A stretch of DNA of 28,538 nt from Escherichia phage Phi06_2974 B (KM389306.1), one strand, 5' to 3'; shown: positions 1,179 to 7,368, counted from the stretch's first letter. Numbers and translations are program-made. The notes: generated by a model not told the origin, from the sequence alone.

Positions 1179-2062
1179 CACACACTCCTCGCCAGAATTT
1201 TGGCTGCCATGGTGCTTAACCCCGGCGACATACGGGTGAAGGTGGTGCTGGCGGAGTTAAGCTGCCCGGAAACGGCATCCAGCGCCGCTGCGATATTGCT
1301 GCCGTCCACGCCGCTCAGTGAAGACTGTGCCTGTTGTACATACGTGGCCGCATCACTGGTGGCTCTGGCCAGACTGATGGCATCAGGCATGGATTCAGAA
1401 AGCGCATTAAATGCCGGAACGCTTTGACCCAACGCCCCGGACACGTTGCCCAGCCCGCTCATCAACCCCGGTACGCGGGTCAGTGCAACGGCGGGGTTAT
1501 CCTTCATTTTCTGCGCCACCCGAACGGCACTGATGGTGGTCTGGAGAACAGACTGCGCCTGTTTGGCGTAGTTGACGCCGTCGCGGACGTACTGCGCTAC
1601 CCCGGAAGGTGAAGGAACGGCACCGGAGACCGCCCCGACGCCGGGAACCTGCGTGCGTATTGCGGGTGGCTGTAGCGGGTTTTTCGGGTCGCCGATGTAC
1701 TCCCGGAGAGACGCGGTGGCATTGACGGCCAGCACGTTGCCGGTGCTGTCGGTCTGCTCGCTGGTCGCAGTAACATCGGTAATCACGAACCAGCCGCGAT
1801 AGTCACCGTTGCCGAAGACCAGCGCCAGCGCTTGATGGGCCTTCATGGCCGTTCGCAGTCTCGCCAGCTCCACGTCGGGCACACAATAGTGCTGATGGAA
1901 GACCAGGCTTATCTGGATTTCGTCCAGCTTATCGCCAACGAACTGCAGGCCGGGCTTACCCTCGATACGGGGATGCTCCGCATAATCGACGCCGAACGTG
2001 ACCTCGAAGCCGTCCCAGTAGGTAATCAGTTCAAACTCAATATCACCCAATACTGCAAACAT
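1178..2062 (-). CDS. tail protein U-like (N-terminal domain) with low-complexity Ser/Ala-rich C-terminal extension
   Basis: ORF track 294 aa; ATG at 2062 overlaps tape-measure stop; N-terminus MFAVLGDIEFELITYWDG...GWFVITDV resembles the gpU tail family as I recall it; gene order after tape measure. Confidence 0.45.
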   Translation of the reverse strand: MFAVLGDIEFELITYWDGFEVTFGVDYAEHPRIEGKPGLQFVGDKLDEIQISLVFHQHYCVPDVELARLRTAMKAHQALALVFGNGDYRGWFVITDVTATSEQTDSTGNVLAVNATASLREYIGDPKNPLQPPAIRTQVPGVGAVSGAVPSPSGVAQYVRDGVNYAKQAQSVLQTTISAVRVAQKMKDNPAVALTRVPGLMSGLGNVSGALGQSVPAFNALSESMPDAISLARATSDAATYVQQAQSSLSGVDGSNIAAALDAVSGQLNSASTTFTRMSPGLSTMAAKILARSV

Positions 2063-4527
2063 CAGCTGTACCTCCTGCGTTGTTGCTGAGCCAGCAGACG
2101 CTCCAGCATTTTCTCCAGCTCATGCAGGCTCATATTCAGTACGCCGGTCAACCCGTCAGGCGCTGCGGTTTCTTTGCCATTGAGGAAAAACTGAGGATTA
2201 AAGCTGACCTGGATACCGCCAGATGTTCCGCTGCCAGTTGCAGCTGCGCCACGACCTGAATATCCCGCCGCCATGATTTCCGGCGACGGGATACGGGGAA
2301 CATCCGGTGTCATTTCAGTGGCCAGACGCTGCCCGGCCAGTGCAGCAAGTGGTGTGGTGCGCTGCAGGCCGATAGCTGCTCCCTGCGCGATGTTGTCACC
2401 AAAGCCTATAAACACGCGGCTCGGCGAATGAATGCCCAGCTTTTCCTTGAACCAACCGCCGACGCTGTCGCCCATATCTGTGACGGTGGTTTTGAGCGAC
2501 TCCCATTTGTTTTTGATGCCGTTAATCAGGCCGTCGATAAGATGGCCACCGAAGTCGGTGAACTTCGCTGGCAGATCAACACCGAGGTATTTCAGCGCAG
2601 CCGCAAAGGCTTTATAGAGCAGACCAACCGGCGACCAGTTAATCAGCAGCTTACCAATCCCCACGACACCGCCATTAAACGCCTCTTTAATGTCAGCCCA
2701 GCGCTGTTTAAACCAGCTACTGACTGCGCCCCAGTTGCGATAAATAAGGTAAGCTGCTGCCGCGACGGCGGTGATGGCGAGACCAATGGGATTCATCAGC
2801 AGCGCCCGGCCAATCCAGAGAACGGCCCGCCCGGCGATCATAATGCCGCGAACCAGCCCACCTGACAGCACACCACCCAGTGTTCTGGCTCCTCTGGCGA
2901 CGGCGCTGAAGCCGGTCACCAGCCAGCGGAGCTTACCGCCTTCACCGAGTGCAAGCGACAGTCGAAGCCAGTTGGCCCGCAGTAAAACGGCATTTTTCCA
3001 GACGTTAACAAAGGGGGAAATAAGGAGATTCAGCCCCAGCTTGAGACCGATAGTGGCCATCTTGAAAGCGAGTAATGCTCCTACAACCTTTATGGTGCCG
3101 CTGACGATTTGCGGGTTTGCCGCTATCCATTTGCCGACACTGTCCATTAAAGGAATAAAAGTCTCACCCAGTTGGATCAAGGCCGGGCGTAGTGACTCAC
3201 CAATGCTGATGGCTGCCTCGTTAAAACCAATCTGAGTTCTGCGCCAACGACCTTCGAGCGTATTATTTTGTTTTGCAGCATCCTTATCCAGCGTAGACAT
3301 TGCTGACGGGGTATTCATTTCCTGCTTGCTGGAAAGGTATTTATCCCAGCCCTGACGCATTGACAGTAAATGGTTAACGGTCTGAATATCAGTGAAGACT
3401 TCTGCCAGACCAAATGACTCCATTAGCTTCTGCTGGCCTTCCTGATCGCCTCTTGAGCCTGCTGCTTTCCATTGCTGTAAAAACGCCTTACCTTTACCGT
3501 CGATAAAACGGTTGGCAATCATCAGTGAGGCTTCATACTGTGAGAAGCCCTGAGCGACGTAATTCTGCATTGACCCCTGGTAATCCACCCCGGCTTTAGC
3601 ATATTTCTGGATGGTATCTCCGCGCCCCATCGCCGCCAGCCAGTTTGACATATTGGTGACGGCCTCTTCCGCTGAGCCGCTGCCTTTACCAACTTCCAGA
3701 CTGGCGACGATCTGGGTAATCGCATCTTTTCCATAAATACCACGAGCAGCGAAGGCTTTAGCCATACCGGGTAATGCTTTTGCCATATCCTTCAGCTCAA
3801 ATGACCCAAGTTTGGCTCCTGTTGCCGCAATACCAAATGCCTGTTCAAGTTCTTTCGCATCAGTGATTCTGAGTGCATCGCTGAAGGCATAAGTCATTTT
3901 GGCAAGGTCGGTCATATCGGCTTTGGTTGCTGTAGCGGTCTTTCCAAGCATCTCTGCAAACGTTGCTGCCCGTTCGGGGGCCATACCATCAGCAACTAAT
4001 TGTCCGACTCCCCCTAACAGAGACTCCTGCAGTTGGTTAACCTTCAGCGAGGCCTGTCTGATAGCCAGGCCAATTGCACGTTCCTGCCTTGAATCCAGAT
4101 CACCAGTGACACTGATATCCCGCAACTGCGATTCAAACGAGGCATATTGTTTGACTGAGGCCATGACCGGTGCACCCAGTGTTCTGACGATGGCATAGGT
4201 TTCTGCTCCCTGGCCATAGAGCGCCATGCGGTTAGCTTTCAGCGCGTCACTGGTGGTTGATACTGCTGACAAACGGCGCTGCTGGCGCTCAATTTGCTCC
4301 ATTGTGCGGCTTACCCGCAGCAGGTCGCTGTTGAGGCGCTGCATCCGGGAAGAACCCAACTGACCATAGCGTTCTGTTGCACGGGTTAAGGCGTTTTGGC
4401 GTTCCTGCAGGCGGCGCGATGTATCGCCCAGGGAATCAAGGGCGCGTCGGGTACCGCTGACGGCTGAGCGGAAGCTACTCCCGACAATGCCGCCAATAAT
4501 GACGCCGACTGAAAATTCACTGGCCAC
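2062..4527 (-). CDS. tail tape measure protein
   Basis: ORF track 821 aa; GTG start with SD AGAGGA 8 nt upstream; coiled-coil-rich N-terminus, hydrophobic Gly/Ala-rich central segments, position downstream of chaperone pair. Confidence 0.8.
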   Translation of the reverse strand: MASEFSVGVIIGGIVGSSFRSAVSGTRRALDSLGDTSRRLQERQNALTRATERYGQLGSSRMQRLNSDLLRVSRTMEQIERQQRRLSAVSTTSDALKANRMALYGQGAETYAIVRTLGAPVMASVKQYASFESQLRDISVTGDLDSRQERAIGLAIRQASLKVNQLQESLLGGVGQLVADGMAPERAATFAEMLGKTATATKADMTDLAKMTYAFSDALRITDAKELEQAFGIAATGAKLGSFELKDMAKALPGMAKAFAARGIYGKDAITQIVASLEVGKGSGSAEEAVTNMSNWLAAMGRGDTIQKYAKAGVDYQGSMQNYVAQGFSQYEASLMIANRFIDGKGKAFLQQWKAAGSRGDQEGQQKLMESFGLAEVFTDIQTVNHLLSMRQGWDKYLSSKQEMNTPSAMSTLDKDAAKQNNTLEGRWRRTQIGFNEAAISIGESLRPALIQLGETFIPLMDSVGKWIAANPQIVSGTIKVVGALLAFKMATIGLKLGLNLLISPFVNVWKNAVLLRANWLRLSLALGEGGKLRWLVTGFSAVARGARTLGGVLSGGLVRGIMIAGRAVLWIGRALLMNPIGLAITAVAAAAYLIYRNWGAVSSWFKQRWADIKEAFNGGVVGIGKLLINWSPVGLLYKAFAAALKYLGVDLPAKFTDFGGHLIDGLINGIKNKWESLKTTVTDMGDSVGGWFKEKLGIHSPSRVFIGFGDNIAQGAAIGLQRTTPLAALAGQRLATEMTPDVPRIPSPEIMAAGYSGRGAAATGSGTSGGIQVSFNPQFFLNGKETAAPDGLTGVLNMSLHELEKMLERLLAQQQRRRYS

Positions 4528-4619: not shown

Positions 4620-4725
4620 TTAATGATTATCGCCGAACTCGCTTCTGATTTGCACTTCAGCCTGCTCCAGCCACATCTCCAGATCGTCAGTATCGAGGGC
4701 ATCAATCTCCCCCGGCTGAAATCTA
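4620..4725 (-). CDS. putative frameshift extension of tail assembly chaperone (+1/-2 frame relative to upstream chaperone ORF)
   Basis: ORF track 4620..4877 overlaps 4723..5037 in the +1 frame; distal part RFQPGEIDALDTDDLEMWLEQAEVQIRSEFGDNH looks protein-like and lacks its own SD-preceded start. Confidence 0.4.
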
Positions 4726-5037
4726 AACCACCTCGCCAGCAGCCCCTGCGCCTGCATCAGCGTTTTCGTCGCTCTTGCCCAGCCCAGTGACTTGCTGAAA
4801 TCGTTTCTGCAGCTCCATGTAGTCGGCAAGATCCATATTATCGAGGTCTTCCGGAAGAATACCGGTGCTACGGGCAATCAGCGGCTCGTCCCAGTCAGCC
4901 GGGTCTTTACTGATTTTGCGCACCTGCTTCAGGTCTTTGACCGTCAGGCGTTTCAGTTCAACCTGCTCAACTCTGGTGCCAGCAGCGGTGGTGAAGGGGT
5001 AAGACAGCTTAAAAGTATCGGATTGGGTTTGTGACAT
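4723..5037 (-). CDS. tail assembly chaperone (G/E-like)
   Basis: ORF track 104 aa; ATG at 5037 with SD AGGAG; immediately upstream of tape measure; acidic low-complexity C-terminus. Confidence 0.6.
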   Translation of the reverse strand: MSQTQSDTFKLSYPFTTAAGTRVEQVELKRLTVKDLKQVRKISKDPADWDEPLIARSTGILPEDLDNMDLADYMELQKRFQQVTGLGKSDENADAGAGAAGEVV

Positions 5038-5104
5038 GATCGTGCTCCTGTGTAAGTTCAGAGCAGTATGTCTGGTGGTGGGACTGGCAGATATTAAAGG
5101 GGAT

Positions 5105-5129
5105 TAAGAAGAAAGGGGCCGAAGCCCCT
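5105..5129 (-). terminator. putative intrinsic terminator (stem AGGGGC / GCCCCT, UUCG loop, then UUCUUCUU on minus strand)
   Basis: Hairpin at 5114..5129 read directly; U-rich run follows on the minus strand; sits 7 nt after the stop of the 93-aa ORF. Confidence 0.45.
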
Positions 5130-5135
5130 GTGATA

Positions 5136-5417
5136 TCAGTGAGTGCGAAAGCCTTTGCAGTTACGCAGGAAGGCGATAAGAAGTACCTTTCCTTCAGATT
5201 TGCCGATGCCGGTGAACCAGTGGTCAGGTGGCTCCCATGCCTCAATCAGGTCAGCGAGCTTTCGTGCTTTGGAGCGTGTGCAGTCAATCGGGTCATTGGT
5301 TTTCTGGGTATTAAAAAGGTTTTCCACCCCTGAAATATCAAGGATGGTAAACCACGTACCATTCCCCATGCCAATCGAACCACAGTTCCCGCCTTTATCT
5401 TCAATCTCGACGGTCAC
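5136..5417 (-). CDS. hypothetical protein (93 aa) between tail tube and chaperone genes
   Basis: ORF track; GTG start 2 nt after tube stop; followed by hairpin terminator on same strand; antisense plus-strand ORF looks less protein-like; no recognisable motif. Confidence 0.35.
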   Translation of the reverse strand: MTVEIEDKGGNCGSIGMGNGTWFTILDISGVENLFNTQKTNDPIDCTRSKARKLADLIEAWEPPDHWFTGIGKSEGKVLLIAFLRNCKGFRTH

Positions 5418-5419
5418 CG

Positions 5420-5941
5420 TCAGCCCCCGATGTTGATGCGGTAGTCGGTCAACTGGTCAATGCCGCCGACGCGGAAGATGTTGGCCAGATAGTCCAGCTC
5501 CAGCAACTCTTCACCATCCAGTACCTGCTTGATGTACGTGCAGGTGAAGCTACTGGAGAACTCGGCGTTCTCATGCTGTTTGAACGTCCCCAGCGGGTTC
5601 TTCTTAAACATGATCGTCAGGAAAGTGACCAGCGGAATTTCGTCAATCAGCCCCTGCGAGCTGTAGCGCTGAACGCTGGAACGGCACTGCAGCGCCAGCG
5701 ACTTATACGGGTTCGCGGCAGACAGCATCGCGTCGCGGTAAAAGCTGTTCCACTTGATCTCGCCCTCAAGCTTGTCGAAGCCAGCAGGGAGTTCCACCTT
5801 GCCCACCATCCCCAGCGCCTTATGCTCCTGCATGGTCATGGAGACGTCAGGCAGTTTGACCTCCTCGGCCCGGCCCAGCAGGTTAGCGCCATCCAGGTAG
5901 ATGTTGGCATTCGTGATGCGGTTGATCTCAATCTTTGCCAT
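5420..5941 (-). CDS. tail tube protein
   Basis: ORF track 173 aa; ATG overlaps sheath stop; size and position directly after sheath gene typical of contractile-tail tube. Confidence 0.75.
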   Translation of the reverse strand: MAKIEINRITNANIYLDGANLLGRAEEVKLPDVSMTMQEHKALGMVGKVELPAGFDKLEGEIKWNSFYRDAMLSAANPYKSLALQCRSSVQRYSSQGLIDEIPLVTFLTIMFKKNPLGTFKQHENAEFSSSFTCTYIKQVLDGEELLELDYLANIFRVGGIDQLTDYRINIGG

Positions 5942-7368
5942 CAGCTATTCCCCTTCAGGGTTAACAGGTATTCCGAGGTGATCTCGGTCTCAAACGTCAG
6001 TCGCTCCAGCGGCGGTGGCGGCGTGTATTTGTAGCTCAGCAACAGATGACCGGCGGCCAGCTCCATCTCTTCATTACGGGCCGGATCAAACCAGCAACTG
6101 AAGCCCAGCAGTGCACCGTCGCCAATCAGCTTGCGACCGTAGGCGTTGACCGACTCCGTCAGCGCATCAATCAGTGCCTGGGTAATCGGCATGTCGATGT
6201 ACTGCTGGCTGAAATAACGCAGGGACTCGTTGATAACATCACCGGTGCGGCGAACGTTCTCAAAGTTGCGCATATGGGTGACCGTTGGCCATGCTGCCGT
6301 CCGGTTGCCCCACAGACGCAGGCCGCTGCCGTAGCTGCTGAAGACCGTAGTGATGCCCTGTTCGTTGAGCAGGTTCACCTCGCTCTGCGGGTCATCAATC
6401 ATTGCCGACAGCTGGCGCTCCACGCCGGTGATACCCAGAATCTCCTGGTTGGAGGACGACCACCAGTAGCCCTTGTCCAGGTCGACCTTGGCACGCAGAC
6501 CTGCAGCACGCTGGCTCAGCGGCTCCAGCCGTTCGCTGTTGGTGGCCGCGTCGTACACCTTGACGTGCGGATAGCACAGACGGACGCGGTCGGAGCTGGT
6601 ATTGAAGTTAATGGTGCCTTCCGGGCCACGCCCCGCCAGAGCCTGCGCAAAAGTGGTACCAATCGGCGCGTCGATGTAGGTCACCGCGCCCAGCTTCTCA
6701 GCCATGGCGATAAGCTCAACCGAGACGCTGTTCTGGGTGCAGAATACCGGGGCAATCAGAATTTTGGCGAAGTAGCCAAACAGGTTGAAGCTGTCGTTAA
6801 GCAACTTCATGCCGGTACGGTTGCCTGCCGCGTTAACGGTACCGATGATATCAGCCGGGGTGACTTTGGTCGGATCGGCATAGTTATAGCTGGCCTTCAC
6901 CGTTGCATCTGCAGCAATGCTTTTACCAAGATTAGTAATCACCCCGGTCTGCGCATCAAGCGAGTAGTCCTGACCTTCCACATAAGGCTGACCGTCGCTG
7001 TCCGGTTTCAGTACCAGCTGCGCGATCACCGGATTAGCCAGCTGTGCCTTGCCCGTCGCCTTGTCGAATGTTACGTCTTCATCGGCCACAGCGGTTTTAT
7101 GCACAGCCGGATCAAGCACGTTAATGACCAGAACGGTGCCTGCCCCATGGTCGTAGATCGCATCCAGTGCCTGCGGAATGGTAAAGCCAGTGAGCTGGCT
7201 GCCAAACGCCGCTGCATCTTTCTCAGACAGGCACTGCACCAGCGTATTGACGTCTCCCATTGGGGCGGTACCAATCAGGCCAATGACGGCGGATTTCACC
7301 GTTTTAACCGGGCGGGCACCGTTTTCCACCTCAATGGTTTCGACGCCATGCAGATAGTTAGCTGACAT
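5941..7368 (-). CDS. tail sheath protein
   Basis: ORF track 475 aa; ATG at 7368 with SD GGAGG; size and order (sheath-tube-chaperone-tape measure). Confidence 0.8.
   Translation of the reverse strand: MSANYLHGVETIEVENGARPVKTVKSAVIGLIGTAPMGDVNTLVQCLSEKDAAAFGSQLTGFTIPQALDAIYDHGAGTVLVINVLDPAVHKTAVADEDVTFDKATGKAQLANPVIAQLVLKPDSDGQPYVEGQDYSLDAQTGVITNLGKSIAADATVKASYNYADPTKVTPADIIGTVNAAGNRTGMKLLNDSFNLFGYFAKILIAPVFCTQNSVSVELIAMAEKLGAVTYIDAPIGTTFAQALAGRGPEGTINFNTSSDRVRLCYPHVKVYDAATNSERLEPLSQRAAGLRAKVDLDKGYWWSSSNQEILGITGVERQLSAMIDDPQSEVNLLNEQGITTVFSSYGSGLRLWGNRTAAWPTVTHMRNFENVRRTGDVINESLRYFSQQYIDMPITQALIDALTESVNAYGRKLIGDGALLGFSCWFDPARNEEMELAAGHLLLSYKYTPPPPLERLTFETEITSEYLLTLKGNS

Follow-up and report, generated by a model that had tools for sequence, protein, structure and literature searches.

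The 28,538-nucleotide (nt) stretch of DNA analyzed here, from Escherichia phage Phi06_2974 B (KM389306.1), is referred to below as the window, and all coordinates are those of the whole window. Between its tail tube and tape measure genes it carries a locus that is a tail assembly chaperone pair of the E / E+E' (lambda G/GT) type, with the second part in the +1 frame. Comparison with homologous sequences makes it very probable that the longer chaperone is an E+E'-like fusion produced by +1 ribosomal frameshifting, and the shift probably occurs at a conserved CGA_UUU_C within the chaperone gene, 24 codons before its stop-codon site, rather than at the stop codon of that gene, where the original prediction had placed it. 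The minus strand is the coding strand of all genes discussed. The elements on which the argument depends are as follows, with the basis for each in brackets.

5037..4723, minus strand: chaperone open reading frame (ORF), frame 0, 104 amino acids (aa), ATG start, stop TAG 4725-4723 (ORF list, Pfam).
4877..4620, minus strand: +1-frame ORF, 85 aa (ORF list).
4808..4783, minus strand: shift interval common to the family (stop codons in both frames).
4803..4797, minus strand: candidate +1 shift site CGA_UUU_C, made up of R79 CGA 4803-4801, F80 UUU 4800-4798 and C4797 of CAG (conservation, stop bounds).
4796..4620, minus strand: +1 part of the predicted fusion, 58 aa SKSLGWARATKTLMQAQGLLARWFRFQPGEIDALDTDDLEMWLEQAEVQIRSEFGDNH, then TAA 4622-4620 (translation, selection, P2 E' homology).
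4757-4755, minus strand: ATG in the +1 frame, not conserved, start of a 45-aa 'GpE family' gene in one genome (NCBI Prokaryotic Genome Annotation Pipeline, PGAP).
4734..4722, minus strand: shift site proposed earlier, GAG GUG GUU UAG A, comprising a Shine-Dalgarno (SD)-like GAGG, GUU, UAG and the first base of AGA (not conserved as a site).
4713-4709, minus strand: G5 run, read by the +1 frame as CCG GGG GAG, P-G-E (similar to the -2 site of Mu).

The chaperone ORF matched Phage_TAC_7 (PF10109) over residues 8-84, with E = 2.9e-24 and 85.3 bits against a cut-off of 25. Pfam describes this family as 'tail assembly chaperone proteins E, or 41 or 14'. The domain ends at T84 (codon 4788-4786), and the frame-0 protein past about G85 is not conserved. 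Three-phase translation placed the second ORF one base forward of the chaperone frame (+1, equivalently -2). Like G/GT-type loci, the region between the tube and tape measure genes holds two overlapping ORFs, here with one extra 93-aa ORF intervening. The gene order and the Phage_TAC_7 match agree with the earlier proposal of a G/GT-like pair upstream of the tape measure gene, and the translation agrees with its second frame being +1 and not the canonical -1. The 34-aa extension past the frame-0 stop, RFQPGEIDALDTDDLEMWLEQAEVQIRSEFGDNH, had also been translated correctly. The length of frame 0 had been given as 103 aa; it actually has 104 sense codons, and a fusion made at the stop site would total 138 aa. 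A search of NCBIfam returned no match for either the chaperone part or the extension.

The +1-frame ORF itself matched PF06528 (Phage_P2_GpE) below threshold (13 bits vs a cut-off of 23, E = 0.077), in an alignment running from its residue 47, five residues upstream of the junction of the 34-aa extension. When a profile of twelve diverse +1-frame peptides was used as the query for hhalign, the E' part of P2 gpE+E' was aligned with a probability of 86.7% and E = 4.4e-6. This alignment begins with QAQGLLARWF at Q15 of the +1 peptide (codon 4754), upstream of the stop site. The +1-frame ORF also belongs to phrog_8286 of PHROGs (unknown function; E = 5e-31), and 'GpE family phage tail protein' is the name that the NCBI pipeline gives to ORFs of this kind, their starts varying by genome. 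We treat the extension, on the strength of these alignments, as a divergent relative of P2 E' and not as a Pfam member.

Two sets of homologues were compared. The close set consisted of 86 distinct homologues from species-representative genomes and viral contigs, and the wider set of 154 distinct sequences that range from Enterobacterales to Undibacterium and include BcepMu, a Ralstonia phage and metagenomic phages rich in GC. E' lies in the +1 frame throughout the 154 sequences. An alignment of both frames with related chaperone pairs, the check that the original prediction had called for, showed the +1 frame to be conserved and the stop site not. The Trp codon TGG 4781-4779 of the +1 frame was found in 86/86 close homologues, and the +1 codons from 4781 on read W, (A/V/L/I), ..., L, ..., A, Q, (G/A), L, L, A, R, W, F, R, F, Q, P. 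Variation of the +1 frame over this region was almost only synonymous (e.g., Ala 4751 as GCG/GCA/GCC/GCT), while frame 0 underwent non-synonymous change (e.g., codon 4725 as a stop, S, P, Q or A). Because purifying selection acts on the +1 frame from 4781, this frame is already read at least 19 codons before the stop site.

How ribosomes enter the +1 frame was judged from its possible starts. No ATG, GTG or TTG of the +1 frame between 4808 and 4726 was conserved across the 86 close homologues, in keeping with the earlier prediction, which a conserved start of the second ORF would have refuted. If there were no frameshift, E' would be a separate small protein from an internal +1 start such as ATG 4757, and RefSeq does contain, in one genome, a 45-aa 'GpE family phage tail protein' called from this ATG; many such small ORFs are found in databases, and phrog_8286 was built from calls of this kind. 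The ATG at codon 4757 is present in only 43/86 close homologues, the others having Thr (ACG/ACA/ACC, 21), Trp (TGG, 11), Ile (ATT, 9) or Lys (AAA, 2) codons, and it is not preceded by an SD-like sequence. The called E' ORFs have inconsistent lengths of 32-86 aa, the +1 frame is conserved upstream of this ATG (including the invariant W 4781 and L 4760), and in P2 and Mu the homologous proteins arise as fusions. A separately initiated E' is thus very improbable. With no conserved +1 start, E' must be reached by a change of frame, as in P2 and Mu, and a frameshift into +1 appears to be the parsimonious route to its expression.

The original prediction placed this frameshift at the end of frame 0. 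There, with the A site occupied by UAG and the SD-like GAGG upstream, tRNA-Val in the P site would slip from GUU to UUU, and 34 aa would be added to the 104 of the chaperone (noted as 103 + 34). The messenger RNA does read GAG GUG GUU UAG AUU U at 4734..4719, exactly as described, and an A-site stop with an SD-like element just 5' is a classical pair of bacterial +1 stimulators (PMC5009743). The site is not shared by the family. Frame 0 of the 86 close homologues ends at UAG 4725 in 37, UGA 4710 in 25, UGA 4704 in 23 and UAG 4767 in 1, and codon 4725 is TAG in 37, TCG in 21, CCG in 15, CAG in 11, CCA in 1 and GCG in 1, so that 49/86 have a sense codon at this position and stop 5-7 codons later; PhiKM-type phages, for example, have GTT CCG GTT where the source phage has GTT TAG ATT.

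All features of the stop site are dictated by the +1 codons GCG AGG TGG TTT AGA TTT (A R W F R F). GAGGUGG is invariant, and its letters are fully accounted for by the +1 codons for Arg-Trp (AGG/AGA TGG). The 'rare AGA' proposed as the first +1 codon is one of four interchangeable Arg codons at 4724 (AGA 31, CGG 25, AGG 17 and CGC 12 among the close homologues), and the UAG is confined to 37/86 because the +1 frame must spell Phe-Arg as TTT-AGR (AGA or AGG). Judging from these codons, coding in the +1 frame is what gives the stop its prfB-like appearance. In addition, slippage of tRNA-Val from GUU to UUU would presumably involve a C.U mismatch at the first position, unlike the G.U of prfB, and both the selection for 19 codons and the start of the E' homology lie upstream of the stop. 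A shift at the stop codon is accordingly given very little probability, and a junction of 104 + 34 aa is at odds with +1 selection from 4781 and E' homology from 4754. GUU_UAG_A could still add a second, minor fusion in the source variant, from ribosomes that had not shifted earlier. The kind of gene pair and its frame therefore stand as originally predicted, and the shift site and junction do not.

Stop codons in both frames limit where the shift can occur. Among the close homologues, the last stop of the +1 frame lies furthest downstream at 4817-4815, and in L047 (Undibacterium), L132, Ralstonia phage YO107_2, L214-L226 and others a +1 stop ends 8 nt before UUU. At the other side, GC-rich homologues (L285, L232, L237 and others) have a frame-0 stop 15-21 nt after UUU. 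These +1 and frame-0 stops place a family-wide shift site within 4808..4783, where frame 0 reads AAA CGA TTT CAG CAA GTC ACT GGG.

Conservation at the nucleotide level within this interval centers on R79 and F80. Of the 86 close homologues, 85 have CGA for R79 and all 86 have TTT for F80; the codons of R22, R30 and R56 have entropies of 0.9-1.7 bits and are mostly CGC or CGT. Synonymous change is suppressed at the candidate site, whereas elsewhere in the ORF the Arg and Phe codons vary freely. In the wider set, a homologous frame-0 UUU_C was found in 153/154 distinct sequences, as CGA_UUU_C in 135, UCC_UUU_CGC in 9 (including BcepMu), GCC_UUU_CG(G/C) in 4, and 5 others that had ACU, CGG, CGC or UGU, each occurring once or twice, before UUU_C. 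The single exception, L033, has an upstream indel. Other Phe codons in frame 0 of the same ORFs are TTC in 174 cases and TTT in 141, and in GC-rich members the neighboring Phe codons are TTC. The sequence has the form UUU_Ynn, a zero-frame UUU followed by the pyrimidine C4797 with the alternative ORF in +1, and as in G/GT-type pairs a conserved shift-prone sequence lies within the overlap, here UUU_C and not a canonical -1 heptamer. By these comparisons, UUU_C is the only conserved shift-prone sequence in 4808..4783. AAA_C at 4806 was considered and rejected, as AAA is swapped for ACC, CGT, GAG, GAC or GTA in several members.

The 9-nt sequence GATTTCAGC occurs twice on the minus strand, at 4802-4794 and 4723-4715, 79 nt (3n+1) apart. 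At the candidate site, frame 0 reads the first copy as R-F-Q; the second copy gives R-F-Q in the +1 frame within WFRFQP, where it offers AGA_UUU_C to ribosomes that are already in the +1 frame. The repeat could be a coincidence or an old duplication.

A second position for the shift, near the downstream edge of the interval, is GGG_C at 4785-4782. Here tRNA-Gly would move from GGG to GGC with the invariant TGG as the next codon, to give 85 + 53 aa with the whole Pfam domain kept. GGG is found in 80/86 close homologues in spite of four Gly codons being available, GGG_C stands exactly at the end of the Phage_TAC_7 domain, and selection on frame 0 lasts up to it. In the +1 frame the overlapping codon is GGN, its third position taking any of the four bases, and Gly is therefore encoded in both frames. 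Outside this majority the GGG is lost: Lonsdalea and two Brenneria have GGC, GGT or AGC and keep the +1 arrangement, and no GGG is present in L130 (TAT GGC CTG), in L133 and BcepMu (AGC ATG G) or in L047 and L132 (TAC TTG G, TTC GTG G). In GC-rich homologues the frame-0 stop is met 15-18 nt after UUU with no GGG before it. We consider a shift at GGG_C unlikely. CGA_UUU_C is the probable site; the argument for it combines the limits set by stop codons, conservation at the nucleotide level and the behavior known for UUU_C.

Mu gp41, a member of the same family by the Pfam description and by names such as FluMu_gp41, has a verified -2 shift on CGG GGG CGA, and PhiKM-type relatives contain a G5 run inside frame 0 (GCC GGG GGA, 4713-4709). 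A Mu-like -2 shift on this run is nevertheless the least probable of the readings, close to negligible. In the source phage the run lies past the frame-0 UAG, which is not the Mu-type arrangement; 25/86 close homologues have CCG AGT GAG in its place; the run falls within the conserved E' motif QP(G/S)E; and +1 selection starts far upstream of it.

Several 138-aa database proteins (P0007, P0012, P0030, P0047 and others) were examined as possible natural fusions and set aside. Their frames are joined at differing homopolymers (G5, A5, G3) in otherwise near-identical sequences; they look like indel errors or mutations and are uninformative on the ribosomal site. More generally, in P0007, P0012, P0030, P0047, P0110, L019, L126, L033 and L094/L095 the frames are fused, or frame 0 is truncated, by single-base differences. 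The homopolymers involved are G5 4713-4709, an A-run at ~4765 and G3 at ~4765. A change from CAG to TAG at 4767 occurs in one variant, and it is at the G run that the frames of the Erwinia tracheiphila copy (L019) are fused. These variants are probably sequencing errors or decaying prophages.

With CGA_UUU_C as the shift site, expression of the pair can be pictured as follows. Most ribosomes would translate frame 0 through to its stop and produce the 104-aa chaperone. In a minority, the P-site tRNA-Phe would slip +1 from UUU (4800-4798) onto the overlapping and better-matched UUC (4799-4797); AGC (4796-4794) would then be decoded next and the +1 frame would be read to TAA 4622-4620. The resulting fusion would be 80 + 58 = 138 aa long and consist of chaperone residues 1-80 followed by a linker and the E'-like domain. 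A Glu-C peptide across the F80 junction is predicted to be LQKRFSKSLGWARATK.... We infer, and do not count as a result, that the conserved codon 5' of UUU (mostly CGA, with UCC/GCC in GC-rich relatives) is a stimulator acting from the E site. By analogy with lambda gpGT, the fusion may connect the tube subunit with the tape measure protein.

Published work on other systems is consistent with such a shift. UUU_Ynn is prone to +1 shifts in bacteria, for example in Yersinia YopN-TyeA, and the product pairs of tail chaperones in tailed phages arise by -1, -2 or +1 shifts depending on the lineage (PMC5009743). Influenza PA-X is driven by slipping in the P site at the UUU_C of UCC_UUU_CGU, where the E-site codon has an effect, and CGA is rare in E. 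coli, at 3.8 per 1000 (PMC3498833). The -2 shift of Mu has an efficiency of ~2.2% (PMC3498833), and a low level of shifting is therefore needed here.

Several observations weigh against the assignment of the shift to CGA_UUU_C. Between UUU and the invariant Trp, the five +1 codons (S K S L G) show no conservation as protein, and therefore the substitution patterns alone place the shift only 'at or before 4782'. At UUU_C no recognizable stimulator was found: the A-site codon (CAG, CAA, CUG) is not rare, and no SD-like sequence lies at prfB spacing upstream of UUU. Nor was a conserved RNA structure found downstream, the alignment fold of 10 diverse homologues having a covariation term of +0.48 with pairs that are either invariant or broken, and the single-sequence fold of 4812..4700 having a z of only -2.1; with these values, conserved RNA structure 3' of either site was dropped as evidence. 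The conservation of CGA TTT CA could be otherwise caused, for example by pairing with the invariant GAGGUGG at 4734-4728. Finally, the homologues share ancestry, and counts such as 153/154 therefore represent fewer independent observations than the figures suggest.

One broader interpretation is that a compact +1 cassette, functioning without a stop codon or RNA structure, is formed by CGA_UUU_C, or by UCC_ or GCC_UUU_CGN where the hosts are GC-rich, and is used by a large family of phages with P2 tails and Mu heads across Gamma- and Betaproteobacteria, the 5' codon acting from the E site (CGA by I.A wobble, or UCC as in PA-X). We propose this tentatively and rate its chances at somewhat below even. 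If true, the same three-codon logic would fix a low frameshift ratio both in bacteria and in a eukaryotic virus, and one clade of chaperones would have swapped the direction of its shift (-1 in P2, -2 in Mu and +1 here) with the two products kept.

The window comes from a BcepMu-like prophage in which a head module of the Mu kind is combined with a contractile tail like that of P2. A prophage of E. coli CFS3292 matches the window at 100% identity, and 637/5426 complete E. coli genomes hold a related sequence when searched with a 561-nt query. Among phage records, the nearest are Klebsiella phage KP12, at 95.8%, and Escherichia phage PhiKM, at 83.2% and classified in Bcepmuvirus; both have head genes annotated as Mu-like and tail genes as P2-like. 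The genes around the chaperone pair are the following, and homologues of P2 gpU, gpX and gpD lie downstream of the tape measure gene.

7368..5941, minus strand: tail sheath gene (PF04984/PF17482).
5941..5420, minus strand: tail tube gene (PF04985).
5417..5136, minus strand: 93-aa ORF between the tube and chaperone genes.
4527..2062, minus strand: tape measure gene, 821 aa (PF10145, E = 2.2e-15).

The 93-aa ORF is kept as a 'hypothetical protein' in KP12, PhiKM and E. coli prophages; it matches phrog_1239 (unknown function, E = 7e-45) and, weakly, DUF7739, and P2 has no gene at this position. In the middle of the tail operon, at 5129-5114 on the minus strand, a terminator-like hairpin, AGGGGCTTCGGCCCCT then TTCTTCTT, separates this ORF from the start of the chaperone gene. 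The 93-nt gap from the E' stop to the tape measure start contains a GC-rich inverted repeat, ACAGCCGC-N-GCGGCTGT, at ~4607-4585 on the minus strand. Its arms are conserved in KP12 and PhiKM and its flanks diverge, and, as it has no T tract, it was not called by the terminator scan. The source phage has only this gap between E' and the tape measure gene, whereas L128 (1444-1704) and L130 (1384-1683) have an opposite-strand gene of 86-99 aa there.

The chaperone pair is annotated inconsistently in databases: in some cases there is a lone 'phage tail assembly protein', in others a stray mini-ORF of the 'GpE family' whose start is arbitrary, and in BcepMu slippage is assigned to the wrong pair of ORFs. 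No joined coding sequence was found in the annotated phage genomes of relatives: six records match the extension, none of them with slippage. A defined shift site would permit a correct joined coding sequence for a prophage family that is common in E. coli. The family would also be a deeply conserved natural case of UUU_C +1 slippage, as predicted here, without a stop codon and with a conserved 5' codon, and P2 (-1), Mu (-2) and the present family (+1) would form a three-way comparison of related chaperones with the same two-protein outcome. Forward frameshifts in the tail chaperones of actinobacteriophages have been annotated by the hundreds (PMC10885494). The class is well known, and the present locus is a so far unannotated member in which the context of the shift site is unusually well conserved; the finding is a refinement and not a surprise.

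Tail chaperone pairs with a programmed frameshift of the lambda G/GT type were reportedly described by Xu, Hendrix and Duda in 2004; in this type a short product and a fusion are formed in a low, constant ratio, and tail assembly requires each of them. Within this type, the closest parallel to the present locus is gpE / gpE+E' of P2 (FETUD operon), where sheath, tube, chaperone pair, tape measure, gpU, gpX and gpD occur in the same order. The gpE protein is named in the Pfam description of the family that holds the first ORF here, the extension here is homologous to E', and the shift maps near the end of the chaperone domain in both. They differ in direction and sequence, the P2 shift being -1 on G_UUU_UUU_G and the present extension lying in the +1 frame with CGA_UUU_C as the candidate site, and P2 E' overlaps the start of gene T, whereas the extension here ends 93 nt before the tape measure start.

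Mu gp41 / Mu_56 shares other features with the present locus. Mu gp41 is named in the Phage_TAC_7 description and database relatives are called FluMu_gp41, the extension is in the same relative frame (+1 = -2), and the head genes of the present prophage are Mu-like. According to GenBank notes and reviews, the Mu site is a G5 run (CGG GGG CGA) with verified -2 re-pairing (PMID 15469818), by which one residue is added. The homologous Phe codon of Mu is TTC (GAC TTC CAG), and the Mu extension is unrelated to the E' type.

With prfB (RF2), which the stop site resembles in its U-rich P-site codon, stop and SD-like element, the locus has the +1 direction in common. The prfB-type in-frame stop is not conserved here (UAG 4725 in 37/86), and UUU_C has neither a stop nor an SD-like element. 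The candidate site resembles YopN-TyeA and the UCC_UUU_CGU of PA-X, where tRNA-Phe in the P site slips from UUU onto UUC without any stop codon and a conserved codon precedes UUU; nine GC-rich homologues here have UCC_UUU_CGC. The resemblance is one of mechanism only, between unrelated genes, and most members of the present family have a codon after UUU that is not rare.

BcepMu gp41/gp42 is a true homologue. Its gp42 is E'-like and in the +1 frame of gp41, UCC_UUU_CGC occupies the position of the homologous Phe, and the +1 Trp is kept; the linker is 20 residues longer than in the present locus. The GenBank record of BcepMu (L006, AY539836) has a slippage annotated at 4859-5364 between gp42 and a partial 'gp43', and none between gp41 and gp42. 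This 'gp43' is in the phase of gp41 and in a GC-rich stretch, at the place where L128 and L130 have their opposite-strand gene of 86-99 aa. Our comparisons of these sequences indicate that the frameshift pair of BcepMu would be gp41/gp42, joined by a +1 shift on UCC_UUU_CGC.

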